A stretch of DNA of 51,967 bases from an uncultured Gammaproteobacteria bacterium (GTDB lineage Bacteria; Patescibacteriota; Microgenomatia; Levybacterales; UBA12049). Where the stretch lies: contig CAZNAA010000001.1 in assembly GCA_964571255.1 (NCBI GenBank), positions 82,167 through 134,133 on the forward strand, given 5' to 3'. A program made the position numbers and the translations under genes. Numbering within the stretch: the stretch's first letter is position 1; every line of letters starts with the position of its first letter. The notes under the pieces were generated by a model. That model did no database searches. It saw only the letters and a program-made list of their open reading frames with translations, and was not told where the DNA came from. Shown one piece after another: positions 1,870 to 51,325 of the stretch.

Positions 1870-3120
1870 GTGTATTCTATGCAATTTATTTATCTCCGTT
1901 TCCCAAAACGACTCATTCATTTTTTTCTTCTTTTGTTCGTTCTTTGCGATATTATTCTTATTGGTATTCTTTTGTCCCCCAGATTTCAACTACAAAAAGT
2001 GAGTGCAGGAGAATTAGAAAAAGTGGGGAATAAGATAGTTCAGATGTGTGATAACAAATCAGGCAAAGGTGGATGGAGAGATTGTTATGGGAGACAACTT
2101 GCAGAGTTTACAAAAAAGCAGTCATTTAGTGATGTAATGCGACTACTAGCAGTAATTCAAAAAAAAGATGCTAATACGAGAGACTGTCATATCCTTGCTC
2201 ATCGAGCTGTTGCTGAAGAAGTTGCTAAAAACCCAAGTAACTGGTCAGATGTTCTTGATGTAATTAGGCCAGATATGTGTAATTATGGGTTTATTCATGG
2301 GATCGTTGAAGCCCGTTCACGGTTTGATAACACATTTATCTTAAACGATAAAACAATCCCAGCTTTTTGTGAAGAGGTAGTAAGAAAGAAAAATATGCAG
2401 TCATTAGATCAAACCTGTGCTCATATTATGGGGCATGTATTACTGGCTGAGGAAAAAGGGGACATTAACGCTGCTGTCTCGATTTGTGATAAGTTGCCAG
2501 TAACCTTGCAATATCAATGCTACGGAGGAACATTCATGGAAAATTTTACTCGTGATAATCTAGTTGCTCATGAGGTCGCTGAATATATTCCTTGGTCTTG
2601 GGAAAACACTTTGCTACAAGAGGGTATCTGTAATAAGTATTCAGGCTTAACTGCAAGAGGTTGCTGGATGGAGATTTCACATATGTATAACAATCAATTT
2701 ATGTATCAACCAGAGAAGATTTTTGAACTATGTTCTCGGTCTCTTCAAGATGATTTCAGAGATGAATGTTATCTTCATGGAACTGCCACTCTTATTCAAC
2801 AGGGGAATCCGACTGATTCTTATCTTAGTTCTTTGTGTCAGCCGTATATTTTAGATAAGAAGTTGTATCCACGCTGTGTAAACGGAATAGTTACTGGTCT
2901 TCTCTACTCTTCAGCAGATTTTGCAGATAGAGCTATTCAAATGTGCTCGGTTACGCTTGATACATATAAAGAGGATTGTTATCGTCAAGTAGGAAGGGTT
3001 TTGAGTCGAGTCATATCAAAAAATGATGTACAAAAAGCATGTGCTACAGTTCCACCTCCTTTTAACTCTGTATGTTCATGTCCTACTTGCACTCTGAAAA
3101 AAGAAGAAAAAAGCAGTTAA
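1870..3120 (+). CDS. membrane-anchored Cys/His-rich repeat protein (paralog A), function unknown
   Basis: 416-aa ORF with an N-terminal TM helix. It carries about 7 units of C-x(10-16)-C-[YWVA] plus the motifs CHILAH and CAHIMGH, and it aligns with the next ORF. The ATG at 1879 is a likelier start than the GTG at 1870. Confidence 0.6.
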   Translation: MYSMQFIYLRFPKRLIHFFLLLFVLCDIILIGILLSPRFQLQKVSAGELEKVGNKIVQMCDNKSGKGGWRDCYGRQLAEFTKKQSFSDVMRLLAVIQKKDANTRDCHILAHRAVAEEVAKNPSNWSDVLDVIRPDMCNYGFIHGIVEARSRFDNTFILNDKTIPAFCEEVVRKKNMQSLDQTCAHIMGHVLLAEEKGDINAAVSICDKLPVTLQYQCYGGTFMENFTRDNLVAHEVAEYIPWSWENTLLQEGICNKYSGLTARGCWMEISHMYNNQFMYQPEKIFELCSRSLQDDFRDECYLHGTATLIQQGNPTDSYLSSLCQPYILDKKLYPRCVNGIVTGLLYSSADFADRAIQMCSVTLDTYKEDCYRQVGRVLSRVISKNDVQKACATVPPPFNSVCSCPTCTLKKEEKSS

Positions 3121-4247
3121 TTAGTATTTTGTTAGTGGGCTTTTTAGGAATTAATGTTGTTTTGCTCTGTATTATAATTCAAGGAAAGTTGTTTCAGTCT
3201 TCTGTTGTGAACAAAGAGCTTATTGCGCAGCAACTCTATGAAAATTGTTCACAAAGAGGAGAAAAAGGAAAGTGTTATACAGACCTTTTTGCAGATATTG
3301 CAAAAAAATATCCATTGCAAATCTCTGAGGAGATTCTTCACATATTGCAAGGAAAAGATACAACAGTCGAATATTGTCATGGAATTGCTCACAAGATTGC
3401 TAATATTGAGGTCGAAAAGGATAGTAAAAATTGGCTTGACTTGTTTAGGTTCGTTGATCTTAACGCTTGTTCAAGAGGGTATTTCCATGGGGTTATAGAA
3501 GGGTATACGAGGTTTAATCCTCAGTATGTGCTGAATGAGGACAATATTCCTCCTTTGTGTACTGATATTTCAGAGAAAGTTAAAGAAAGAGTGGAAAAAT
3601 CTCATGCTGTAAGAATTTGTCTTCACGCGATAGGTCATATGCTTCTTGTTCAAGAAAAAGGAGAGGTAGAGAAAGCGAATACTATTTGTAGTAAGTTAGG
3701 AAAAGAAAAAGAATACGAATGCTTTGTTGGTGTATTTATGGAGTTTCTTGGGAGAGGAAATTTAATTATTCATGAAATTCTACCAAGGCTGCAATGGTCT
3801 GAGGAGGCAGTACCTTTCATTACAGACCTTTGCTTAAAGCAAACGGATAAACAAATAATTATTGCTTGTTGGCAAAGTACGAGTGAGATGTATGCTTCTA
3901 TAAGTCGTTCAGCAGACAGCTTACATATCTTTTGTGATAAAGCTCAAACGTATGAAGCTAAAGTAAAATGTAAGGTGCAAGGGACTGGATTTCTCGGATT
4001 TCTTTTTAACTCGAGTAATGAAGATACATCGTCACTGTGTTTTAAATTTCAAACTGTAGCAAAAGAGTACACGCAGTGTATTGAAATGGTAATACAGTAT
4101 ATAAGAAATTCTACTTCATCAAATAGGTCAAATGAGTTAACGCTGTTTTGTGAGAAGCAGAATGAATTTGCAGCAGTGTGTTTTTCGTACTTGGAAAGAA
4201 TTCAAGACAAACAACGCTCTCCAAATCTTTTAGAAGAAAGAAGCTAG
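3072..4247 (+). CDS. membrane-anchored Cys/His-rich repeat protein (paralog B), function unknown
   Basis: 391-aa ORF with an N-terminal TM helix. Motifs CHGIAH, YFHGVIEG, CLHAIGHMLL and ECFVGVFMEF are collinear with paralog A (CHILAH, FIHGIVEA, CAHIMGHVLL, QCYGGTFMENF). The start overlaps the end of paralog A. Confidence 0.6.
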   Translation: MFMSYLHSEKRRKKQLISILLVGFLGINVVLLCIIIQGKLFQSSVVNKELIAQQLYENCSQRGEKGKCYTDLFADIAKKYPLQISEEILHILQGKDTTVEYCHGIAHKIANIEVEKDSKNWLDLFRFVDLNACSRGYFHGVIEGYTRFNPQYVLNEDNIPPLCTDISEKVKERVEKSHAVRICLHAIGHMLLVQEKGEVEKANTICSKLGKEKEYECFVGVFMEFLGRGNLIIHEILPRLQWSEEAVPFITDLCLKQTDKQIIIACWQSTSEMYASISRSADSLHIFCDKAQTYEAKVKCKVQGTGFLGFLFNSSNEDTSSLCFKFQTVAKEYTQCIEMVIQYIRNSTSSNRSNELTLFCEKQNEFAAVCFSYLERIQDKQRSPNLLEERS

Positions 4248-4732
4248 GGAAGAAGATAGAAGTATCCTGCAATCGCACTCTCTGTTCCACATCGGTATGC
4301 ATACGCTCCTAATCCTTTTGTAGCTGTAATGGTAATTTTTTTCTTCTCTTTTGGAGCAATAGAATAGGGAGTATCTCCATATTTAATAATAGCATGTGTA
4401 GGCATATTATTTACAAGAAGAACTGAAGATTTATTCTTCATTTTTATAATTCTAGGTTCTGTAGTACACGTACCTGAAATAGTCATTGTATCTGTTACAA
4501 CAGCAGCATTTCGAATTTCAGTATCTCGTTGAGTTCTTTGGTCTCTGGTTGCGTTTTGTGGAAGAGGAGTGAATAGAGATGTTGTTTCTGAAGTATTTTG
4601 GGTACTTGAAGAAGGAGTATTTGTTATGTTTGATGTCTTTTTAGGAAAGATATAGGGATATGCAAGATAACTTAACATTGCTGTTATCAATAATAATACA
4701 AAAAAAAGAGAGAGATACCCTTTATTACTCAT
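4244..4732 (-). CDS. hypothetical membrane-anchored small beta-rich protein
   Basis: 162-aa ORF with an N-terminal TM helix, a Ser/Thr-rich linker and a C-terminal region of about 90 aa that looks beta-rich. It sits in the same strand block as the cupredoxin-like gene. Confidence 0.5.
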   Translation of the reverse strand: MSNKGYLSLFFVLLLITAMLSYLAYPYIFPKKTSNITNTPSSSTQNTSETTSLFTPLPQNATRDQRTQRDTEIRNAAVVTDTMTISGTCTTEPRIIKMKNKSSVLLVNNMPTHAIIKYGDTPYSIAPKEKKKITITATKGLGAYAYRCGTESAIAGYFYLLP

Positions 4733-4753
4733 CCTTTATATCATATCAACTTC

Positions 4754-6289
4754 TTAGAGTCTGTCAATATTTTTAAATACAGTAATAGTAAGTGAGGGTG
4801 ATGAGTAAATAACTTCTGTTGTTTTTTCTATAGCACATATAGCTTGAGTAGGATGATAACATACAGTAAACTGAAGAGGTGATGGTAAAGAAGCAATTTG
4901 ATAAATTCGATTTGGGTCATTTTTGAGAAATAGTATTTTTGTTTCTAGACGATATTCAAGTGGAGTGAGAAGGACTGTGTCAGAGATAAAGTGAAGCTGT
5001 CTTTCTGATTTGCTTGCATGTGGATAAAATGAAGAAAGTGTAAAAAAATAAAAGTCAGGATAATGCATTTTCTCTTTTTCTTTTCTAATATACTTTTCAA
5101 GGGCTTCTATTCCTTGAGTAATTTCAGCTTGTTGGTTAGTTAATCGATTAGTATTAGTTAATCGGGTATAGGTATTTATTACTTGTGGAAGAAGAACTAG
5201 AGAGCAAGATGTAACAACAAGACCTACTCCAATGTGTTTCCAAGAAATCTGTGTCCAACCTCTCCAGATGATACCTAAACTATAGGTGAAAAAAGGAATG
5301 GCAAGAAGAAAGAAATACACCCCATGTTGAAATCGGGAAAAACTCATACTAAAAAGATAGAGGTTAATTCCTAGAAATAATATAAAGAAGTATCGTTTAT
5401 ATAAAACATTTTGCTCAAGTAAAAAATAAACTAGAGACGAGATAAGAATAAAGCACATAAAAAACCAATTACCATAGAGGAGATGTGTATAGAAAAGAGA
5501 GTAAGTGTTGATAACTTTTTTAATAGAAAAAAGTTCCTCGAGAGGAATTTGAGAAGTGAACTTAGTTTCTGAACCAATATAATAAAAAAGGATTGGGAAG
5601 TGGGTAAAAAGGAGACATAGAAAAAAAAGAATATATCCTATTAGAATTTCTTTTACTGAAATAACGTTCTGCTTCCACAGCAGAAAAATGAGAAAGAACA
5701 TCCAGAAAGTAAAACCAAGCGTACTTGTATGGAAAGTAATGCTTAAAGAAAAGAGAATAAGGGAAAGGTAATAGAAGTATTTTTTTTTCGTGAAGTAAGC
5801 AAACGATAAGAAAATAAACGTGCCTGTGATAAGTGGAAGCGCAAAAAGCGGTAACCATACAAGTCCTGTGTATTGGTGAACTAAGCTCGTTGTAAGATAG
5901 ATCGCTCCAAATGATATTGCAGTGCATATTCCAAACTGTTTCATTAAAAAATATAAACTTACGCAAAAGGTGATTGTTAAAAGTAAGATACTTATAATTT
6001 GAAGAGTAAAAAAACTATCGTATATCAGAAGAAAAAAAGCAAGAAAATAAAAAAAGAAAGGACTATATTTAATGATATCTTTTGTTCCGCTATTATATGG
6101 ACCCAATAATGGATATTCCTGATACTTTATTATGTGACTCGAAATCGTATAGTGAGCCATATCATCTCCCTCAGTTCTTAGAGAAGAAGAAAGTGATTGA
6201 GTAGTTTGAATTAAAAAGAAAAAAAGAAAAGAACTAAGAAGAATAAAAAGAAAGATAAGAAACCTAAGTCTCTTTATGAGAGTGATCAT
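4754..6289 (-). CDS. polytopic membrane protein, GT39/ArnT-like (PMT_2-type) glycosyltransferase candidate
   Basis: 511-aa ORF with more than 10 hydrophobic segments over the first roughly 370 aa and a soluble C-terminal domain. This architecture is typical of GT-C glycosyl/arabinosyl transferases. The assignment rests on architecture only. Confidence 0.5.
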   Translation of the reverse strand: MITLIKRLRFLIFLFILLSSFLFFFLIQTTQSLSSSLRTEGDDMAHYTISSHIIKYQEYPLLGPYNSGTKDIIKYSPFFFYFLAFFLLIYDSFFTLQIISILLLTITFCVSLYFLMKQFGICTAISFGAIYLTTSLVHQYTGLVWLPLFALPLITGTFIFLSFAYFTKKKYFYYLSLILFSLSITFHTSTLGFTFWMFFLIFLLWKQNVISVKEILIGYILFFLCLLFTHFPILFYYIGSETKFTSQIPLEELFSIKKVINTYSLFYTHLLYGNWFFMCFILISSLVYFLLEQNVLYKRYFFILFLGINLYLFSMSFSRFQHGVYFFLLAIPFFTYSLGIIWRGWTQISWKHIGVGLVVTSCSLVLLPQVINTYTRLTNTNRLTNQQAEITQGIEALEKYIRKEKEKMHYPDFYFFTLSSFYPHASKSERQLHFISDTVLLTPLEYRLETKILFLKNDPNRIYQIASLPSPLQFTVCYHPTQAICAIEKTTEVIYSSPSLTITVFKNIDRL

Positions 6290-6290
6290 A

Positions 6291-6671
6291 CTACTTAACA
6301 GTAATCTTACCTACTTGTTTTGGGAAAAGGTGGTCATGGAATTTCCAAGTCCCAGGTTTAGTAAACGTAAAAGACCAGGATGATCCTGAAGCTACCGGTT
6401 GTTTGGGATCAAACTCGGGATAGATTCCATGTGTGGGGTGCATGTCTGATGCAGGCCATCTTTCTGTGGAACTTTTATTCTCAAAACGAACAAGAGTACA
6501 TTTAGTAATAGATAATTCATCAGGAGAGAACCCTTCATTCGTTATGGTAATAGTTTGTTGGTTTTGCAGAAGACAGAGTGAGTCGGGCATATAGTTTTTA
6601 AAGTAATAGAGGCCTCCTGCAAGAAGAATAAGGGGAAGAAAGGGAATAAAGTGCTTTAAATGATCCTTCAT
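6291..6671 (-). CDS. cupredoxin-like domain protein, membrane anchored
   Basis: 126-aa ORF with an N-terminal TM helix. The body ITITNEGFSPDELSI...VRFENKS...SWSFTFTKPGTWKFHDHLFPKQVGKITV fits a cupredoxin beta-sandwich pattern. The canonical Cys ligand is absent (FHDH in place of a C-x-x-H motif). Confidence 0.6.
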   Translation of the reverse strand: MKDHLKHFIPFLPLILLAGGLYYFKNYMPDSLCLLQNQQTITITNEGFSPDELSITKCTLVRFENKSSTERWPASDMHPTHGIYPEFDPKQPVASGSSWSFTFTKPGTWKFHDHLFPKQVGKITVK

Positions 6672-6801
6672 AAGAAAAGTATACTCTAGTAATTTGGTAG
6701 ATAAAAGTAGAAGTTTAACTATATTTCATCAGTCAAGGATTATTCTTAATCTTGTGTATAGTTTTTCTGAAGAGTACAATAATCACACTTGCCTATTGGT
6801 C

Positions 6802-7977
6802 ATGGTAAATTTTGAGCAGGAAAAAGCGAAAGTAGGGATTATAGGAACAGGCTTTATTGGGTCTGGACTTGCATACAGCCTAGAGTGTCATAGAAATGTT
6901 GCTGTTTCTGCTATTCTTACTAGAAGGAATCCATCAGAGATAAAACACCTTCCTCCAGAAAAAGTTACAGATTCTTTACAACAAATTATTGAAGAGTCAG
7001 ATGTTGTAGTAGAGTGTAGTGGTGACCCTCTTTATGCCACAGATTCAGTATATAAAATTCTTCAAGCTGGGAAACGAGTTATTAGTATGAATGCTGAAAT
7101 GCAAGTAACCTCTGGAAGTTGGTTATCTCAACGAGGATATCTCACTGAAGCAGAAGGAGATCAACCAGGTAGTTTAGCTGCACTTCGAGAAGAAGTCTTA
7201 GAAATGGGTTTTGACCCCATAGTTTATGGGAATATTAAAGGATTCCTTAACCATACTCCAACAAGAGAAGAAATGGAATTTTGGTCAAAAAGACAAGGAA
7301 TAAGCTTAGAACAAGTTACTTCTTTTACAGATGGAACTAAAATTCAAATAGAACAAGCTTTGGTTGCGAATGGACTAGGAGCAAGAATAGGTCAGCGAGG
7401 TATGTATGGAATCTCAACTGATGGATATCAAGAAGGTGGGAAATTATTAGGAGAAAAAGCGGAAGAAATTGGTGCCCCAATCAGTGATTATGTCCTTTCA
7501 CCAAAATCCCCAGCGGGAGTGTTTATTACCGCAACTCATCCAGATGAGAGACAAGCAAGTTATTTAGCCTATTATAAAATGGGAGGTGGTCCTCACTATG
7601 TTTTTCTTCGTCCTTTCCATCTTTGTCATTTAGAAATTATAAAAACAATAGAAAGAGTACTTGGTGATGGAGGCATATTACTTAATAATGGAAAAAATCC
7701 GACTGTAAGTGTGGCAACAGTTGCTAAACGTCCTCTTAAAAAAGAAGAAATAATTAAACGTGGAATTGGAAGTTTTGATGTTCGTGGGGAAGCCGTAGAG
7801 ATAAAAGATGCTGTTAACCATTTACCAATAGGACTGGTTTTTGATGTAAAATTGAAATATGATATTGCTCAAGGAGCAACAATTACATTTGGAGATGTTG
7901 AAATACCTGAAAGTATGGCTCTTCTTGCTTGGAAAGAAACAATAAATAACAGTGAAAGAACAACGACCTCAAACTAA
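6802..7977 (+). CDS. NAD(P)-binding oxidoreductase with C-terminal SAF domain (COG4091-like, homoserine-dehydrogenase-like)
   Basis: Rossmann motif VGIIGTGFIGSGLA lies right after the ATG at 6802. The C-terminal VAKRPLKKEEIIKRGIGSFDVRGEAV is SAF-like. The ORF-track start at 6694 is a TTG, adds 36 non-conserved-looking residues and leaves only 22 nt of spacer to the divergent upstream gene. Confidence 0.6.
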   Translation: MVNFEQEKAKVGIIGTGFIGSGLAYSLECHRNVAVSAILTRRNPSEIKHLPPEKVTDSLQQIIEESDVVVECSGDPLYATDSVYKILQAGKRVISMNAEMQVTSGSWLSQRGYLTEAEGDQPGSLAALREEVLEMGFDPIVYGNIKGFLNHTPTREEMEFWSKRQGISLEQVTSFTDGTKIQIEQALVANGLGARIGQRGMYGISTDGYQEGGKLLGEKAEEIGAPISDYVLSPKSPAGVFITATHPDERQASYLAYYKMGGGPHYVFLRPFHLCHLEIIKTIERVLGDGGILLNNGKNPTVSVATVAKRPLKKEEIIKRGIGSFDVRGEAVEIKDAVNHLPIGLVFDVKLKYDIAQGATITFGDVEIPESMALLAWKETINNSERTTTSN

Positions 7978-9211
7978 TATACCTCCTTTCCTTGCTGATA
8001 CATGGTGGTATGGAATGACAACTCGTTTTTCTGATAAAGAATTTGTTTCCTTGGCAAAAAAACGTAAAGAACAAGGCTTTTCTGCAATCCAAATAGTAGT
8101 TGGAATCCCTCCAGAAGTAGGGCTTAGCCATCCCTCAGCAGCGAGTGAATATGGTCCTGCCTGGAATCTTAGAGGAGAGGTTAATAAACACTATTTAGAT
8201 TATGCAAGAAAAAGAGTTGAAACATTAAACTCTTTGGGTTTACTTGCAATTATATATGGCGCATGGGGATATCAAATTGAATGGTTAGGAGTAGAAGGGA
8301 TGGTAAACTGGTGGAAAGAAATTATTAGAACCCTTGATAAGTTGGATGTTTTATATTGTCTTACTGGAGAAAGTGATCTCTGGGTACGAAGAGAGAAACA
8401 ACTATTGCCAAACAAAACAACTGATATGTTAGGTAATCAAAGAGTTGGAAAAATATTACCAGGAAGAGTACGTAGCCTAATAAAACGAGCAGTAGGTTAT
8501 ATTGAATCCCCCCTTTTTGTAGCAGGAGAAAAAGAAAGGCAACAAAAATGGAGTAATGTTCTTGCGTCTGTGCGTCCACTGACTAACAAGCCATTCTTAA
8601 TCCATCCTCTTCCTGGAGAAGTAAGTGAAGATATAGTAAGAGATCCAGAAGCGCTTGATGCTGTTACTGTACAAACAGGTCATGATAAAGGTGCAAAAAA
8701 TCAGTTATGGCAACTCCCTTATGAAGCAATGCGGGAGTATCCTCAGAAACCTTTCATAAATTTAGAACCTTGGTATGAAGGAATAAGGAATGACTTTTAT
8801 ACTGGAGATCAACTATATGCTTACTGGTCTTCAATGATGAGTGGTGCTACTGCTTACTGTTACGGGGCACATGGAATTTGGAATGGAGGAGACGGGAAAT
8901 TTCTCGCACATTGGGGGAAACAAACATTTTCTCAAGCAGTAAAGTTAGTAACACCAGGATTGCTTGGGAAAAGTCATGAAGTCTTTACTAGTCAAATACA
9001 GGGGAAGTTTACAAATATTCAGATAGTTCAGCAGAATAATAAGTTACTTCAAATCACTCGGCAAGATTCTCATAAGAGATGTATTCATTTTATTCCTGAT
9101 GTAACTAAAATGTACAAAGTACAGCATGAAGGAGAATTTTTTGATCCTATATCAGGAGAGTGGAAAACAAAGATTCCACAACAAGGGCCTGTAGTAATTT
9201 TTCCAAGATAA
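7952..9211 (+). CDS. DUF4038/GH140-like TIM-barrel glycoside hydrolase family protein
   Basis: The N-terminus PFLADTWWYGMTTRFSDKEFVSLAKKRKEQGFSAIQIVVG matches the family signature I recall (DTaW ... R..GF..iQ). This is an assignment from memory. Confidence 0.5.
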   Translation: MKEQRPQTNIPPFLADTWWYGMTTRFSDKEFVSLAKKRKEQGFSAIQIVVGIPPEVGLSHPSAASEYGPAWNLRGEVNKHYLDYARKRVETLNSLGLLAIIYGAWGYQIEWLGVEGMVNWWKEIIRTLDKLDVLYCLTGESDLWVRREKQLLPNKTTDMLGNQRVGKILPGRVRSLIKRAVGYIESPLFVAGEKERQQKWSNVLASVRPLTNKPFLIHPLPGEVSEDIVRDPEALDAVTVQTGHDKGAKNQLWQLPYEAMREYPQKPFINLEPWYEGIRNDFYTGDQLYAYWSSMMSGATAYCYGAHGIWNGGDGKFLAHWGKQTFSQAVKLVTPGLLGKSHEVFTSQIQGKFTNIQIVQQNNKLLQITRQDSHKRCIHFIPDVTKMYKVQHEGEFFDPISGEWKTKIPQQGPVVIFPR

Positions 9212-10636: not shown

Positions 10637-10865
10637 AGATTAACTAACTATTTATTTCTAAGTTGGTTAATTGTCGGAATAGATGAATCAATAAGTTTTA
10701 AAGGCAATATTAAATTGGAATTGGTACGATTTGCCATACTAAATTTAGGCATATAATATAGTGTGAGTTCCTGTAGTGCTGAATTATACCATCGATTCTA
10801 ATAACTAGTGGTAGTTGATGAGAGAAGTTATCGGAGCTTCAGGCTGAATGATACTTTTCTATTGC

Positions 10866-11081
10866 TCAAGTGAGCTTCGAATTTGGTTCCAATTCAAAAA
10901 ATTTGGGAACCATTTTCTCAGTTAATGAAGTAATAAAATCTGTGTCTTTTTCGCCATACGGAGCATTCTGTATATCTCCGTAGTAAATATAACTTTCTTG
11001 AGGAAAATGAGTATTGAGGGATTTAAGAATTGTTAGCCCTCCAACTCCTGAATCGATAACACCAATTGGCCGATTATTCAT
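10866..11081 (-). pseudogene. murI: truncated glutamate racemase (murI) N-terminal remnant
   Basis: The 71-aa ORF begins with the MurI N-terminus (PIGVIDSGVGGLTILKSL...IYYGDIQNAPYGEK). It stops before the catalytic ACNTA region. The 229 nt downstream (10637..10865) contain no ORF continuing it. Confidence 0.6.
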
Positions 11082-35698: not shown

Positions 35699-36709
35699 CT
35701 ATGCTACATTCTCTTTCGGGAGAAACTTTTTTCTTAACTCTTCTGGATTTGGGAACTTGAGAACGCCTCTCCTAAATGTCGCTTGGTATTCTTTCTCTTC
35801 TTTAGATAGTACACGATCCTTGCTGATGTGTTTGACTTGGTCATCAAAAGCAGATTGTACATACCATTCAAGAGAGTTATGAATAGTTGGATTCACTTCT
35901 GCTAAATGTACCCATGCTTGAGTTACAGCCTCTTGGTGATATCTCAGCGCACCTTCGCGAGACTCAATAACAACCTTTTTGGTCGCAAGAAGTAGCTGAG
36001 GTAGGAGCGTAAGTTTATCTTGTAAAAGCTCGAAATTTGCATAGGGACCAATTGGTGGAGGCACTTTCAGATTTTGTAATTTCCTTAATCGTTCTGGTGT
36101 AATTCCCTCAAGTGCTTCGAGCCCTGCAATTAGTTGGGCTGTACTGAGGTAGAATCCTACTTGATTATCAATACTAAGAAATGTAGGGTCACCATCTGGT
36201 GGAACATGATAGTGTCCTTGATCAAACAATAGTTGTCTTTCTTGGCTCGAGTACACTGGATTTACTCTTTTATCTTCTGGGTGAGCTATCATGTATGCTT
36301 CTCTTGCGCCATAAAAATCTGGACGTAAGGTCTGAAGCCTTCCTTGAAAATATTCTGGGAATGATAAGCCTGAGGGATGTCCTGCATTCTCTTTACTAAT
36401 CAGTTTACGCTGTTCAGTACCAATACTTATACCTGCATCAACTGGAAGGATATCAAGATCTGAATATATATCCATTCTTCCTCGAAGAAGCGATCCAATA
36501 GGAATAATAATTCCATATTTCTCAATAAATTGTTGAACAGGAAGTGGTGGATGTTCTTGAGTAAATAGTTCGTGAGTATATTCTCGAAGGAGTTGCATCA
36601 CGGTGCGGGAGAAATCCGTTGGTGACTCTGGATGGAGCAGGAGTTCTGATGCAGCATCTACACTAAGGCTAGGTGAGAATACCTTTTTTTCTCCATCTCC
36701 CTTTTCCAT
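35699..36709 (-). CDS. nucleotidyltransferase (Pol-beta superfamily) domain protein
   Basis: IGSLLRGRMDIYSDLDIL matches the G-S-x(n)-D-x-D NTase signature. The rest of the 336-aa protein is unassigned. Confidence 0.5.
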   Translation of the reverse strand: MEKGDGEKKVFSPSLSVDAASELLLHPESPTDFSRTVMQLLREYTHELFTQEHPPLPVQQFIEKYGIIIPIGSLLRGRMDIYSDLDILPVDAGISIGTEQRKLISKENAGHPSGLSFPEYFQGRLQTLRPDFYGAREAYMIAHPEDKRVNPVYSSQERQLLFDQGHYHVPPDGDPTFLSIDNQVGFYLSTAQLIAGLEALEGITPERLRKLQNLKVPPPIGPYANFELLQDKLTLLPQLLLATKKVVIESREGALRYHQEAVTQAWVHLAEVNPTIHNSLEWYVQSAFDDQVKHISKDRVLSKEEKEYQATFRRGVLKFPNPEELRKKFLPKENVA

Positions 36710-39280: not shown

Positions 39281-40009
39281 CTAGAAAGGAAGAGGATAGT
39301 TAAGAAGCTTCATCCATAAAACTGCATAGATTGCAAAGAAGATCAGAGCAACTACAAACAAAAGAATTCCTTTCATTCCTCCAGACTTCTCTTCTTTTAC
39401 AGGAGATGCGATATGGGGAGTGGTTGTTGCTGCATGAAGAGTTGAGGTTGGTCTGGTAAGGGATGGTTGTAAAGAGGTTGTTGCTCCTGAGGGAGGAGTA
39501 GAATTCCCAAAAGGTGATGGTGGAGGAGGTGGTGTTATGGTCCCTGTTGGTGGAAGAGGAGTTGGTGGAGTGATAGGTTTAGCAGATGTGCCAAATCCAG
39601 GAGGAGTAGATGCGTTTGCAACAGGTGGGGGTGAGCTTGCTGGAGGAGTATTTGGTGAGGGTGTAGAAAGTCCGTTAGCAGGAGGTGGGACAGAAGAGGA
39701 GGTTGCTAGTGGTGTTCCCATTGAAAGAGGGGAGGAGGAATTTAGTGATGAAGGAGGAGTAAGTGGCGTTACAGGAGATACGGGGGTTTGACTTGGTGCA
39801 GGTGGAGTAGAAGAAGTTAAAGGAGGAACAACAGTTCCTGTTTGAGCGTGAGGAGTTGAAGTGCTTAGTGGTGAACCTATTGGAGGTGCTGGAGAAGTTG
39901 CAGGAGACTGAGGCATACTTCCTGGAGTTGCAGGACTAGCCATTCCCATGACTCGATCATAAGCAGTTTTTAACTTTGGATCAAGGGCAGATAGATTTTT
40001 AGGATCCAT
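39281..40009 (-). CDS. Pro/Ser/Thr-rich low-complexity protein with C-terminal TM anchor
   Basis: 242-aa ORF. About 180 aa are P/S/T-rich, and the protein ends in the hydrophobic helix GILLFVVALIFFAIYAVLWM. It lies 7 nt upstream of the 248-aa ORF on the same strand. Confidence 0.55.
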   Translation of the reverse strand: MDPKNLSALDPKLKTAYDRVMGMASPATPGSMPQSPATSPAPPIGSPLSTSTPHAQTGTVVPPLTSSTPPAPSQTPVSPVTPLTPPSSLNSSSPLSMGTPLATSSSVPPPANGLSTPSPNTPPASSPPPVANASTPPGFGTSAKPITPPTPLPPTGTITPPPPPSPFGNSTPPSGATTSLQPSLTRPTSTLHAATTTPHIASPVKEEKSGGMKGILLFVVALIFFAIYAVLWMKLLNYPLPF

Positions 40010-48038: not shown

Positions 48039-48569
48039 ATGGCAAGTTTTGGAAGTCTTAGTCAAAATCCCTTTGAAACTGCGTGGGAGCAAGGAAAAAG
48101 TGTAGGACGAACGGTTGGAAAAACAGTCCAGCAACAATCAAAACAATGGAGTTCAATGGCAAATGGCCAAGTCTTAGGAACTCTTGTATCCACTGATCCT
48201 CGAGTGGATAGTTCTCCACAAAATGCCAAAGATTTCCAGCAAGAACTCCAAGGACAGAAAAAACCAACGCAAGCTGCTTCTCTTTCAGACCCATTTGGCA
48301 TGCAAAATCATCAACAGACTCAAGTAAAACTGGCTGATACTAGAGCCAAGCTACAACTTCTCAAGCAGCAACATACGGCAACCTATTTTAATCCTACCTT
48401 TAATAGTCGGAAGCATGAAGTAGCGCAGCAGCAAGAAGAGCAAAAGAAAGTACAAGAGCAGCGAGTAGATTTTGCTAAAAAAGAAGAGGAAAAGAGAAAG
48501 AAGTTTAACTTTAACGCTTTAACCCAATCTACACATAGAACAGAAACCTTTAGAGGTGCTTCTGGATAG
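48039..48569 (+). CDS. hypothetical Gln/Lys-rich protein
   Basis: 176-aa low-complexity polar ORF with host-like composition. Confidence 0.45.
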   Translation: MASFGSLSQNPFETAWEQGKSVGRTVGKTVQQQSKQWSSMANGQVLGTLVSTDPRVDSSPQNAKDFQQELQGQKKPTQAASLSDPFGMQNHQQTQVKLADTRAKLQLLKQQHTATYFNPTFNSRKHEVAQQQEEQKKVQEQRVDFAKKEEEKRKKFNFNALTQSTHRTETFRGASG

Positions 48570-48579
48570 GTCTTATAGT

Positions 48580-48608
48580 TTGCATTTCTCTCTTCTCAGG
48601 CGTATAAT
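48580..48608 (+). promoter_or_regulatory. consensus-like sigma70 promoter (TTGCAT-17-TATAAT) about 210 nt upstream of the foreign cassette
   Basis: TTGCAT at 48580..48585, a 17-nt spacer, and TATAAT at 48603..48608. Confidence 0.55.
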
Positions 48609-48818
48609 CCATCTTAGTTTTAGGCTTGAACTGTTTCTAATTGCAGAAGTTTAGTAGAACCTAAAATAGTTTAATTCTCTTGCACATTAATAGTTGTGGA
48701 AAATATTCTTTTGCTTTCTTTTGAAGCAAGGTAATAGGGAAGGAATTTCTTCTTTTTCTCTTGCCGTGCTTCAGAGCCTACCGGGAGTCCGGATAGGTCA
48801 AGAAGCGAAGGAGGAACA

Positions 48819-49334
48819 ATGATAGAGTTTGACATCTCCTTGTACCGTCTAATTATTGCCTTCAGGAAAGCTAACACCAACCTAATGGCGCGAAGGATCA
48901 ATGCACAGTCGATTACCGCTCTCAAAGGGTTGGATATCGACAAAGATCAGATCAAGAAGGTGCTTGAGGCAATCGTGCCAAAGGATCTGTTCGAGGCGTT
49001 AACTATCTTCGCCAACTTCGACATCCTTCTTGGCAAAGAATCCGATCAGCTGGTTAAGCGACAGCCGGACTACCGGGCGCTTGACGACGATCTGGCTATT
49101 GTCTTCTATATTGCCTCGGCGGAAGTCGTGGTGATGGAGGCACTGGTTCCGGTTCTTTACACCCATGGTAGGCAAATCGCATGGGCGTTCGTCCAGACCT
49201 TAGAAGAAAAGGAGCTGACTTTGTTCGCGAGTCTCTACATGCCAAATTCCAATGTGAGCTGGGGACCAAGGCGTGCGAAGATCAAGGAGCTCAAGTTGCC
49301 CAAGCTCAAGGAGGTAGGCTTGGAAGCTAACTAG
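48819..49334 (+). CDS. hypothetical protein A of a GC-anomalous two-gene cassette
   Basis: 171-aa ORF with the SD GGAGG 5 nt upstream of the ATG. Its G+C and codon choice (CGN Arg, GCG, CTC) are unlike the neighbouring genes. It looks helix-rich and has no recognised motif. Confidence 0.6.
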   Translation: MIEFDISLYRLIIAFRKANTNLMARRINAQSITALKGLDIDKDQIKKVLEAIVPKDLFEALTIFANFDILLGKESDQLVKRQPDYRALDDDLAIVFYIASAEVVVMEALVPVLYTHGRQIAWAFVQTLEEKELTLFASLYMPNSNVSWGPRRAKIKELKLPKLKEVGLEAN

Positions 49335-49356
49335 CAGAAAGGCAGAAGGGATCAAT

Positions 49357-49815
49357 ATGCTCGTTAGTCAGCGAACAGGTCTAGGGACAGGTATCCTCGT
49401 TGGAATTGCTCTCGTACGTGGAATCCGTTTCTATCGGTGGCATGTGGCTTATCTACGCAACTTCGAGTTGCAAAGCCAACAGCTTCGACAGCGCAGGAAG
49501 CGACCTCTCACTGCAACGGAGCGTCAGACTAGGATCAATGAGTTCCCACAAACAATGGATCAACTGCGGACACGCGAACAGCGCGAGGCAGTTGAAGCTT
49601 TCATCGACCTGATGACGTGGGTGATCGAAGATAACATTCTCCCACGTCGTCTCCAGTCCATGAACACTGTCAACCTCTTTAGCACTATTGGGTGGGATGC
49701 GATGTTCGTGTTCCTCAATGGTGTTAAGGAACACGGAAGGCAACACGGATATACTGCCCAGTATGCCCGTGATCCAAATACGAATGAGATCTATCTCCAT
49801 TTCTCCTACAACTAG
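49357..49815 (+). CDS. hypothetical protein B of the GC-anomalous cassette (N-terminal TM helix, Arg/Gln-rich segment)
   Basis: 152-aa ORF starting 22 nt after ORF A. It has an AAGGGA SD-like element, an N-terminal hydrophobic segment GLGTGILVGIALV, and then QSQQLRQRRKRPLTATERQTR. It is followed by a GC-rich hairpin. Confidence 0.6.
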   Translation: MLVSQRTGLGTGILVGIALVRGIRFYRWHVAYLRNFELQSQQLRQRRKRPLTATERQTRINEFPQTMDQLRTREQREAVEAFIDLMTWVIEDNILPRRLQSMNTVNLFSTIGWDAMFVFLNGVKEHGRQHGYTAQYARDPNTNEIYLHFSYN

Positions 49816-49826
49816 CAAGAGAAGGT

Positions 49827-49867
49827 GTCCCGCTGCATTACGCAGCGGGGCGCCAATCTCTTTTTTT
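49827..49867 (+). terminator. GC-rich stem-loop plus T-run ending the cassette
   Basis: GTCCCGCTGC (49827..49836) pairs with GCAGCGGGGC (42..51) around the loop ATTAC. The T-run at 49861..49867 starts about 9 nt after the stem, which is longer than ideal. Confidence 0.5.
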
Positions 49868-49930
49868 CTTTCTAAATTGTTTCCTCATACTAGTAATTAT
49901 GGTAAAATGCCACTATTGCTCTAATTTAAA

Positions 49931-51325
49931 ATGCTTACCCTTTATAATTCCCTTACACGCTCAATTGAAAACTTTACACCATTAACTCCACCTCACGTTG
50001 GAGTCTATACCTGTGGACCAACGGTGTATAGCTTTAACCATATCGGAAACTTTCGGACCTATATGCTTGGAGACTTAATTGTTCGTACGCTTCAACTTAC
50101 TGGGTTTGAAACAACGTATATCATGAATTTTACTGATGTAGGACATTTGACTGGAGACAATTCGGGAAATGCCGATTTGGGAGAAGATCGAATGGAATCA
50201 GCTGCAACAAAAGAAGGAAAAACAGTCTGGGAAGTATCACAATTTTATATTGATGCTTTTTTAGAGGATTTTGAGAATTTAAATATGCAACCTCCTACGC
50301 AATTTGTCAAAGCAACTGATCTTATTCCAGAACAAATTGAACTTATTGAGCGTCTTGAAAAAAAAGGCTTTACCTACCAAACAACGGACGGAATCTATTA
50401 CGATACCTCAAAATTCCCAACATATGGCCAACTCTCCTCACTTGATCAAATCAAAGAAGGAGCTAGAGTTGAGATAAATCCTGAAAAAAAGACTCCACGA
50501 GATTTTGCACTGTGGAAGTTTTCTACTCCTTCAGAAAAAAGGCAAATGGAATGGGAGAGTCCATGGGGAGTAGGATTTCCGGGATGGCATATTGAGTGTT
50601 CTGCCATGAGTATGAAGTATTTGGGGGAGTCATTTGATATTCATACTGGAGGAATGGATTTAAAAGAAACGCATCACCCAAATGAAATTGCTCAATCAGA
50701 AGCCGTAACGGGGAAAAAGTTTGTGAACTATTGGATGCATGGAGCGTTTCTTCTCGTTAATGGAGAAAAGATGAGTAAGTCAAAAGGAAATGTGTATCGA
50801 ATTTATGATCTAGTAAAACAAGGATATGATCCTCTTGCCGTCCGGTATTTATATCTCCAAACGCATTATCGGCAAGAAATGAATTTCACTTTTCCAGGAC
50901 TTGATGCAGCCCAAAATGCGCTGAATCACTTGCGATCTGATATGCTCACTCTTTCACCTAGTGAAGCAGTGAATGAGGAATACTTACAAAAGTTTTTAGA
51001 TTCTCTCTCAGATGATCTCAATACCCCTCAAGCATTATCAGTTGTTTGGGAAATGATGAAATCAGATATTCCTGCTGGTGAGAAACTCATGACTCTTTTT
51101 GAAATGGATAAAGTGTTAGGATTTAATTTGAAAGAATACTTCGAAACAGTGGGGAAGAAACTGGCTGAGCCCATCCCTCAAGAAGTACTGGATTTAGTCG
51201 AGGAGAGACGACTTCATCGAAAAGCAAAACAATATGTTGCTGCAGATCATATTCGAAATAAAATCAAAAAGTTAGGGTATGATATTGTTGATGATGGAAA
51301 AGGTACTCAAGTAAAAAAACTATAA
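49931..51325 (+). CDS. cysS: cysteine--tRNA ligase
   Basis: Class I motifs HIGN (NHIGNFRTY) and KMSKS, plus the zinc-site GWHIECS. Confidence 0.95.
   Translation: MLTLYNSLTRSIENFTPLTPPHVGVYTCGPTVYSFNHIGNFRTYMLGDLIVRTLQLTGFETTYIMNFTDVGHLTGDNSGNADLGEDRMESAATKEGKTVWEVSQFYIDAFLEDFENLNMQPPTQFVKATDLIPEQIELIERLEKKGFTYQTTDGIYYDTSKFPTYGQLSSLDQIKEGARVEINPEKKTPRDFALWKFSTPSEKRQMEWESPWGVGFPGWHIECSAMSMKYLGESFDIHTGGMDLKETHHPNEIAQSEAVTGKKFVNYWMHGAFLLVNGEKMSKSKGNVYRIYDLVKQGYDPLAVRYLYLQTHYRQEMNFTFPGLDAAQNALNHLRSDMLTLSPSEAVNEEYLQKFLDSLSDDLNTPQALSVVWEMMKSDIPAGEKLMTLFEMDKVLGFNLKEYFETVGKKLAEPIPQEVLDLVEERRLHRKAKQYVAADHIRNKIKKLGYDIVDDGKGTQVKKL

Follow-up and report, generated by a model that had tools for sequence, protein, structure and literature searches.

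Introduction

Of the known concepts, the closest to the element that we describe here is the phage moron, a unit equipped with a promoter and a terminator of its own and unlike its neighbors in GC content (PMC3594210). The present element lies in a 52-kb stretch of DNA (hereafter the window; mean GC content 37.6%) on a contig of 772,860 bp. An initial annotation of the window had singled out two genes, here called A and B, as a compositionally foreign cassette and suggested that they might form a toxin-antitoxin, abortive-infection or other minimal defense pair. Comparison with related loci leads us to a different reading, which on balance we hold to be the probable one: that A and B belong to a horizontally acquired, self-contained expression cassette of a small, previously undescribed family in the Microgenomates, within the candidate phyla radiation (CPR)/Patescibacteria, and that this cassette entered the interval that separates the conserved gene hyp176 from cysS.

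Bacteria of the CPR/Patescibacteria have tiny genomes, few recognizable mobile elements and abundant gene exchange of unclear mechanics; their gene transfer takes place mostly among themselves, and genes for competence and pili are common in them (PMC12455944). A cassette family equipped with a promoter, a leader and mRNA-closing elements, and with precise cargo replacement, would give this exchange a concrete, searchable unit.

Results

A foreign cassette that drifts toward host composition

The two co-oriented open reading frames (ORFs) of the initial annotation, 171 and 152 aa long and 22 nt apart, are present as described, and their composition sets them apart from the rest of the window. 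Combined, they have a GC content of 0.498, compared with 0.373 ± 0.022 (maximum 0.446) for 1,050-nt windows outside the region; this deviation (z≈5.7) upholds in a sliding-window test the GC rise first counted by hand, and the cassette is the top-GC stretch of the whole 52 kb. The shift sits mainly at third codon positions, where the GC content (GC3) of both genes (Table 1) exceeds that of the other 52 ORFs (0.254 ± 0.036, maximum 0.346). Codon choice, scored as the per-codon log-likelihood under host usage, departs from that of the host with z = -10.9 for A and -8.4 for B, and the switch that had been noted toward other Arg codons, GCG and CTC in place of AGA is confirmed: AGA supplies 44% of Arg codons in the host and none of the 27 in the cassette, while codon fractions rise from host to cassette for CTC (0.10 to 0.34), GCG (0.08 to 0.31), TTC (0.19 to 0.88) and AAG (0.24 to 0.75).

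Examination of polarized third-position substitutions in A, on the branches of the window and of contigs L001 and L004 (contigs and loci are cited by such L numbers throughout), revealed 24 GC→AT changes against 5 AT→GC changes, whereas the same count in the host gene hyp176 gave 7 and 9, respectively, i.e. equilibrium. This imbalance indicates that A is drifting to host composition (amelioration), a signal that we judge to be the strongest single argument for a horizontal origin. The cassette is foreign and horizontally acquired, and its composition is decaying toward that of the host. Contig L001, from ENA, carries the same prs-recR-hyp176-A-B order at 91% nucleotide identity, and the synonymous divergence (dS) of A between the window and L001 (0.34) is close to that of the flanking genes hyp176, prs and recR (0.28-0.48), indicating that the cassette is older than the split between the two. 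The ratio of nonsynonymous to synonymous divergence (dN/dS) is 0.04-0.10 for A and 0.18 for B (the latter against L001); both are thus under purifying selection, and hence are real genes.

The second-highest GC bump of the window (39281-40009, minus strand) encodes a low-complexity protein of 242 aa that is rich in Pro, Ser and Thr and carries a membrane anchor at its C-terminus. Considered as a second foreign segment, this 39-40 kb region was ruled out: its GC content is high at second codon positions (GC2 0.66) and host-like at third positions (GC3 0.21), so that the bump reflects amino-acid composition rather than foreign origin.

Conserved ends frame unrelated cargo in sister cassettes

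Homology to the cassette of contig L002, which adjoins a YfbR-like gene in a neighborhood unlike that of the window, starts at 48570, directly behind the stop codon of hyp176, and extends over 250 nt of AT-rich sequence 5' of A. It breaks off at a variable gene and resumes past that gene to run on through the GC hairpin and the 'AATCTC' tail. The segment delimited in the initial annotation is therefore real, although its start at 48760 was placed too far downstream: the unit begins at 48570, and the AT-rich promoter and leader (48570-48818), along with the inverted repeat described below, had been missed.

The variable gene is B. In L004, whose flanks and A show synteny with the window, a non-homologous ORF of 88 aa (B') takes the place of B; the exchanged segment extends from 6 nt upstream of the start codon of B as far as its last two codons. 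In L002, a 63-aa zinc-ribbon ORF stands in the place of B. Despite these non-homologous partner genes, A is 86-88% identical in L004 and L002. A C-terminal domain common to B and B' was considered and ruled out (BLASTP E=3); the two share their last codons because these overlap the 3' box of the cassette. Conserved cassette ends thus frame unrelated cargo, and the partner gene is replaced ORF for ORF between them.

A more elaborate arrangement is found in L092, where a GC-rich island of ~6 kb (2643-9014; GC 0.48-0.58 in a host of 0.39) lies beside a tRNA-Val gene. Within it, four cassettes lie in tandem, all headed by the same promoter, and between them they have two types of leader and two of 3' module; two of the four have the leader and 3' module of the window type, and each contains a small CxxC...CxxC zinc-ribbon ORF. 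One of its genes (P0006, 4564-5181) encodes an A domain with a zinc ribbon joined to its C-terminus, and in L002 A is followed by a separate zinc-ribbon protein (6847-7038); this Rosetta-stone hint suggests that in some variants A acts together with such a module. Positions 1624-1648 of L092 may represent a duplicated tRNA 3' end. Apparent sample-to-sample variability in the genes of this island among L092-L097 was ruled out, as these contigs, at about 100% identity to one another, differ solely in their gene calls.

A-family genes also occur without a partner, standing alone in L101 and L098. In L101, the A-family gene and a 318-aa gene form two separate cassettes (GC3 0.65 and 0.54) between recO and a class-II tRNA synthetase gene with a GC3 of about 0.25. 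In L098, the A homologue lies among GC-rich genes (GC3 0.6-0.7), a context that suggests what a donor might look like. The screened cargo of the sister cassettes matched no defense, toxin or phage family (10 proteins against PADLOC, 13 against Pfam, others against NCBIfam; B' and the corresponding B'' were scanned against Pfam and NCBIfam, not PADLOC).

A predicted promoter and a structured leader precede the genes

The cassette is headed by a candidate promoter of a cassette-specific form, ATAGTTTG…TATAAT, with the sigma-70-type family consensus YATAGTTTG-N17-TATAAT. A regular expression for the extended motif has two matches in the window, and good hexamers are present only in the one that heads the cassette; those of the second match, at 36229, are TTGTCT and TACACT. 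The same motif heads the cassettes of L001, L002, L004, L099, L101 (two), L092 (four) and L039 (two), and is nearly missing from ~0.8 Mb of related loci.

Each gene had been credited with a Shine-Dalgarno (SD) sequence of its own. This proves correct for A, which has the strong site AAGGAGG, but only in part for B, upstream of which there is merely the weaker AGAAGGGA. Among host ORFs, an SD-like 4-mer is found upstream of only 8 of 52, and in many cases a TATAAT-like box lies no farther than ~15 nt from the start codon; as host start codons were taken from the longest ORFs (54 ORF starts), these counts are approximate. The pattern suggests widespread leaderless or SD-independent translation in the host organism.

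The predicted leader between promoter and A folds unusually stably (minimum free energy (MFE) z=-3.8), is 71-85% identical among four A cassettes, and is homologous to two leaders of L092 that precede other ORFs. Alignment of its long hairpin in six sequences shows 25 pairs, with 96% of cells paired and compensatory double changes at 6 pairs; none of 500 shuffles reached this covariation score, and controls with a slid register collapsed. In 8/8 cassettes, the sense strand forms a far more stable hairpin than the antisense strand does, which points to a function at the level of RNA. A covariance model of the leader (R1) gave two further full-length matches, at 3126-3314 of L101 and 7597-7803 of L011, both of which end exactly at start codons: that of the 318-aa gene in L101, and that of a GC-rich gene in L011 that occupies the same hotspot between the hypothetical gene and cysS.

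Rfam 15 has no match at the gathering threshold anywhere in the window (within 48300-50000, just a chance small nucleolar RNA match with E=0.2), the leader pattern was not found in JGI metagenomes, and its nine matches in IMG/VR (L091 and L102-L109) were set aside as chance, since L091 lacks flanking similarity and L102-L109 fail the covariance model. A hint from RNAalifold that the 5' box of the leader sequesters the SD of A was likewise ruled out, the duplex energies being no better than those of shuffles (p 0.2-0.75). Inspection of otherwise homologous leaders also revealed a tiny palindrome, AATCCCGATTTAATCGGGAA, and variants of it at differing places (L002, 6126-6143 and 6165-6185; L092, 4075-4094, 5526-5545 and 7589-7617); this may be a very small mobile hairpin, or else an RNA stem that can expand.

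The two ends of the cassette are complementary

The 3' box of the cassette is the reverse complement of a bipartite 5' box within the leader. For the window, the duplex of the two boxes has a ΔG of -22.8 kcal/mol against a shuffle mean of -10.0, with 0/1000 shuffles as good; across five cassettes, the energies range from -18.5 to -25.5 kcal/mol, and the shuffle means from -9 to -12 (p≤0.005 each). Pairing is specific to type: 5' boxes of the window type pair with 3' boxes of their own type, and 5' boxes of the L092 type pair with 3' boxes of the L092 type and poorly with those of the window type. The complementarity between the 5' and 3' ends is significant and covaries between cassette types. 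In all five full-length predicted transcripts, the resulting helix is part of the global MFE structure and spans more than 1 kb (the transcript of the window being 1.25 kb long).

The 3' box is kept behind non-homologous cargo in L004, in L002 and in two cassettes of L092. The consensus of the 3' end reads (C)AAC-NN-GCAAGAGA, followed by a 13-bp GC hairpin of variable sequence and ARTCTC. In the window, this hairpin has 13 pairs, 10 of them G-C, and is both the most GC-rich and the most stable of the window, in agreement with the earlier remark that the closing hairpin was unlike any other there. Counterparts of varying sequence close the cassettes of L002, L004, L092, L101, L011 and L098, most of them without a U-tract.

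A small orphan protein family and its partners

The family of A has ~10 members found overall. Among 1.84 billion representatives, a profile search identified only six credible relatives, and a second iteration added no new members; GTDB genomes, IMG/VR and JGI metagenomes held no relatives of A. Searches with tblastn for A and B were empty for 50,697 phage genomes as well as for 72,556 plasmids. Neither protein matched anything in Pfam, NCBIfam, PHROGs, PADLOC, PDB sequences or PDB folds, the sole match for B in family searches being a far-sub-threshold one to the TM2-HAMP region of CreC. The only homologues of B are itself and a partial copy in L001. AlphaFold2 models of A and B, with mean confidence (predicted local distance difference test, pLDDT) of 48 and 57, are too poor to use, and a Foldseek search of these models against the PDB gave nothing at E<0.4. 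Both proteins had gone unrecognized in the initial annotation, and they do so here as well. The N-terminal transmembrane (TM) helix assigned to B is borne out only insofar as its N-terminus is weakly hydrophobic; the signal is marginal, with a best Kyte-Doolittle 19-residue window of 1.41. B has no cysteines.

In the explanation that best fits these data, A is an orphan core, autonomous and tolerant of exchange among its small partners; in the window the partner is a helical protein with a weak membrane anchor, and elsewhere zinc-ribbon proteins take its place. Our best guess for the function of A is an accessory role in conflict or host interaction, rather than membership in a classical toxin-antitoxin pair.

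The cassette occupies an insertion hotspot

Across the Microgenomates, the gene order ybaB-prs-recR-small hypothetical gene-cysS is kept, and hyp176 is the conserved gene that follows recR. The cassette lies between hyp176 and cysS, where it had been placed at the outset. In most Microgenomates, this site is empty, with the stop codon of the hypothetical gene 5-100 nt from the cysS start, as compared with an interval of 1.36 kb in the window; synteny across recR-cysS in relatives thus identifies the cassette as an insertion. Together with the composition and the different neighborhood in L002, the mostly empty site sustains the earlier description of a foreign element that lacks an integrase. 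No integrase was found in the cassette and no transposase in any locus, the window contains no tRNA or tmRNA gene as an integration target, and neither a search for flanking repeats nor inspection of the junctions found a target-site duplication or terminal repeats at the outer boundaries of the cassette.

Mis-assembly, which had been named as a concern, was excluded by comparison of assemblies: five independent Logan assemblies from five separate sequencing runs carry the identical cassette sequence, L010 (48207-49912) spans the left junction, L006-L009 span the right junction into cysS, and L001 shares the arrangement. Four independent Logan contigs begin exactly at 48673, where the left box of the inverted repeat starts, and a fifth has its end at 49912. 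De Bruijn assemblies usually break where adjoining k-mers have a second context, and the break at 48673 hints at another context in the community, e.g. other copies of the cassette or strain variants.

The junction between the hypothetical gene and cysS is an insertion hotspot across the Microgenomates, with unrelated inserts in three other lineages. The insert of L011 (6609-8438) comprises a PD-(D/E)XK gene and a GC-rich gene (GC3 0.60) for a secreted protein, closed by a GC hairpin; that of L015 (6603-8230) is a 252-aa orphan gene; and that of L039 (4870-7495) holds a 94-aa ORF, a Fic-domain gene (PF02661) and a kinase-like gene with an HGDAHLGN motif.

The RecR protein of the window is at most 73% identical to those of Candidatus Levyibacteriota and Microgenomates metagenome-assembled genomes. 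Many records among the closest RecR loci, which include L012-L015, L020 and L025, are titled 'uncultured Gammaproteobacteria'. These titles are probably wrong, as RecR identities of 66-73% and the ybaB-prs-recR-hyp-cysS order point to Levybacteria/Microgenomates.

A structured repeat of ~115 nt, which closes with a GGTTCC...GGGAACC hairpin and is matched by no Rfam family, is present as one copy in the window, at 10794-10907, and as two in L002 (4837-4951 and 5905-6017). The two copies in L002 have the same orientation and flank the YfbR-like gene, the second adjoining the left boundary of the cassette. That sequence had been considered as a remnant of hyp176 5' of the L002 cassette, a possibility ruled out by its identity as a copy of the repeat. 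The shared repeat suggests that the host of L002 is a relative, and it may mark recombination-prone or terminator sites. In the window, a glutamate-racemase-like ORF (10866-11081, minus strand; MNNRPIGVIDSGVGGLT...PYGEK) is truncated after about 55 residues, where it runs into the repeat and stops; probably, this is either a pseudogene of murI or the scar of a deletion.

Table 1. Features of the cassette in the window.
Feature	Coordinates	Strand	Remarks
Whole cassette	48570..49862	+	Delimited by homology to sister cassettes
Predicted promoter, ATAGTTTGCAT-N17-TATAAT	48575..48608	+	-10 box 48603-48608; consensus scan 10/12
Structured 5' leader, ~200 nt	48615..48818	+	Transcription start inferred
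5' box (TTCTCTTGC ... TAGTTGTGG), bipartite left arm	48675..48699	+	Pairs with 49806-49823
Long leader hairpin, ~25 bp	48719..48776	+	Covariation
Shine-Dalgarno sequence of gene A	48808..48814	+	AAGGAGG, read directly from the sequence
Gene A, 171 aa, conserved orphan core	48819..49334	+	GC3 0.651
Gene B, 152 aa, swappable partner	49357..49815	+	GC3 0.536
3' box (CTACAACTA GCAAGAGAA), right arm	49806..49823	+	Overlaps last codons and stop of B
GC-rich terminal hairpin, 13-bp stem	49824..49854	+	ΔG -28.5; followed by AATCTC and a T7 run

Discussion

In the reading that we favor, members of this family share one layout: a predicted promoter, an AT-rich leader of ~200 nt with a long RNA hairpin, a strong SD sequence, one to four small GC-rich ORFs, a 3' box complementary to the 5' box of the leader, and a 13-bp GC hairpin. 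The mRNA would close into a panhandle, which may insulate and stabilize expression in a host whose own genes for the most part lack an SD sequence or a leader. The cassettes could spread, and their cargo could be swapped, by homologous recombination through the conserved ends and the flanks after DNA uptake; alternatively, a recombinase supplied in trans might act on the repeats, with no enzyme encoded by the cassette itself. The donors would presumably be GC-richer relatives. A TfoX_N gene lies ~7 kb downstream of the cassette, in L006.

Several points weigh against this proposal. The promoter, the transcription start and the panhandle are predictions, and the mechanism of movement is put together by inference. 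The family is small (about 11 cassettes on 8 contigs), the covariation statistics draw on 5-8 sequences, the two further R1 matches, one each in L011 and L101, have marginal E values (near 0.01-0.02 under a rough calibration), and no second copy of the leader was found in the window or in L006. The cassettes of L039 share the promoter motif and the hotspot only, and have neither leader nor GC bias nor hairpin; the identity of the donor rests on a single contig, L098; and pLDDT values of 48 and 57 leave protein function unconstrained. The inverted repeat, finally, is nearly all Watson-Crick and has no sense-strand bias. For this reason an RNA panhandle and DNA terminal repeats are inseparable in silico, and a DNA-level role of the repeat as the ends of a recombinase or transposase substrate is equally compatible with the data.

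This last point leads to the view that the cassette is a non-autonomous DNA transposon, resembling a miniature inverted-repeat transposable element (MITE) or a mobile insertion cassette (MIC), in which the boxes serve as terminal inverted repeats for a transposase or invertase acting in trans and RNA pairing is incidental. We regard this as a minority possibility. Inverted repeats of ~27-30 nt bracket the ORFs in 5/5 cassettes and covary by type, the same cassette occurs at different loci without a recombinase in cis, and the assemblies break exactly at the left repeat (48673), all of which such an element would explain along with the Watson-Crick character of the repeats. It would be harder to reconcile with a promoter outside the left repeat and a GC hairpin outside the right one, both of which nevertheless travel with the cassette, with the failure to find a target-site duplication or a transposase in any locus, or with the lack of a second copy across the window and L006, which cover 60 kb of this genome. 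Unlikely, too, is the original proposal that A and B form an obligate pair, i.e. a two-gene toxin-antitoxin, abortive-infection or minimal defense system in which one protein neutralizes or triggers the other, and it was not sustained by the data. The exchange of B for non-homologous genes while A remains 86-88% identical is unexpected for a co-evolving neutralization interface, and single-gene A-family cassettes exist in L101 and L098; since A is kept with non-homologous partners and can stand alone, A and B are not an obligate co-evolving unit. Sizes of 171 and 152 aa and a spacing of 22 nt are also atypical, A and B match nothing in PADLOC (v2), Pfam, NCBIfam or PHROGs, and the screened sister cargo matches no defense or toxin family. 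These observations have to be set against a gene arrangement that would suit such a system (two small, adjacent, co-oriented genes between one promoter-like site and one hairpin, in a foreign cassette without an integrase), the weakly hydrophobic N-terminus of B, the presence in the same hotspot of a Fic-domain gene with a small upstream ORF (L039) and of a PD-(D/E)XK gene (L011), and a fold-back pairing between 5' and 3' ends that recalls the fbi element of hok mRNA (PMC3562002, with background on hok/sok).

An origin as a phage moron, or as the remnant of a decayed prophage or plasmid, appears quite improbable to us. The predicted promoter, the terminator-like hairpin and the deviant GC content fit the published description of morons (PMC3594210), and small orphan, zinc-ribbon and membrane proteins are typical cargo among phage accessory genes. 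Housekeeping genes (prs, recR, cysS and uppS) flank the cassette, however, and no phage genes do; the phage and plasmid searches with A and B were empty, IMG/VR contained neither a relative of A nor the leader motifs, and PHROGs gave no significant match. The cassette is, moreover, richer in GC than its host, whereas phages usually lie at or below host GC. We consider it very improbable that the segment is an artefact, in which a chimeric assembly or contaminating DNA was joined into the contig. An abrupt change in composition and the breaks of Logan contigs at 48673 and 49912 might raise that suspicion, but both junctions are crossed (by L010 on the left and L006-L009 on the right) in data from five separate runs, L001 has the same prs-recR-hyp-A-B order at 91% identity, the dS of the cassette matches that of its flanks, and the amelioration signal speaks of long residence in an AT-rich genome.

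If the expression cassette that we favor is taken one step further, it might represent a new class, namely recombinase-free, self-insulated mobile expression cassettes specific to CPR/Microgenomates, whose conserved ends, comprising a dedicated promoter, a hairpin-bearing leader and a 5'-3' panhandle beside the GC hairpin, would serve both as an expression chassis and as recombination handles. We put this forward tentatively, as a possibility that we would not yet expect to hold. Were it true, these bacteria would draw on a shared pool of GC-rich orphan genes that are swapped ORF for ORF and expressed in AT-rich, largely leaderless hosts, an integron-like economy of gene shuffling without an integron. 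The leader hairpin, with a 5'-3' helix that spans a kilobase, is a candidate for a new cis-regulatory RNA architecture, and the covariance model of the leader offers a handle for cataloguing accessory genes in unculturable symbionts. A itself is a strongly conserved orphan family (dN/dS, ω, about 0.05-0.1) unlike anything known. Should the cassette be merely an islet of hypothetical genes, its practical value would be smaller, and it would still provide a clean example of amelioration and of the recR-cysS hotspot.

The cassette resembles several known systems in part. As in type II toxin-antitoxin systems, two small adjacent genes form one operon in foreign DNA without a recombinase; here, however, there is no homology to a toxin or antitoxin, the partner is interchangeable, and A also occurs alone. 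MITEs and MICs likewise have inverted repeats that frame passenger genes (in 5/5 cassettes here, p≤0.005 each) and no transposase in cis. They differ from the cassette in its lack of a target-site duplication, in the promoter and GC hairpin that lie outside its repeats, and in its low copy number, with none further in the window or L006 and tandem copies in L092. The hok/sok system, through its fold-back-inhibition and translational-activator elements (fbi-tac), resembles the cassette in a long-range pairing, predicted here, of the 5' leader with a 3' element near the terminator that closes the full-length mRNA (PMC3562002, with general background). Unlike that system, the cassette would produce an mRNA of ~1.25 kb with ORFs of 171 and 152 aa rather than a toxin of ~50 aa; pairing of the 5' box with the SD sequence is unsupported, and no antisense promoter stands out in a promoter scan.

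The likeness to integron cassettes, including arrays of the CALIN type (clusters of attC sites lacking integron-integrases), extends to small, mostly orphan, exchangeable ORFs, a hairpin-forming 3' element, the tandem array of L092, and replacement at a fixed site. Integron cassettes are generally promoterless, whereas each unit here has its own promoter and leader. The 3' element, composed of GCAAGAGA, a perfect 13-bp GC hairpin and AATCTC, is also unlike attC: inspection of the 3' elements, with no dedicated attC model run, found no R''/L''/L'/R', RYYYAAC or GTTRRRY boxes. IntI was not seen among the called genes of L092, L101, L002 and the window flanks, all of these contigs being short. 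Phage morons such as HK97 gene 15 share with the cassette the framing by a promoter of its own (here predicted) and a terminator-like hairpin, a deviant GC content, insertion between conserved genes and horizontal spread. The cassette differs from them in being chromosomal, amid prs, recR, hyp176, cysS and uppS and with no match in phage genomes, plasmids or IMG/VR. To our knowledge, morons have neither a structured leader nor an inverted repeat that spans their genes; in this family, by contrast, a conserved, structured leader of 200 nt and a spanning inverted repeat are maintained across unrelated cargo.

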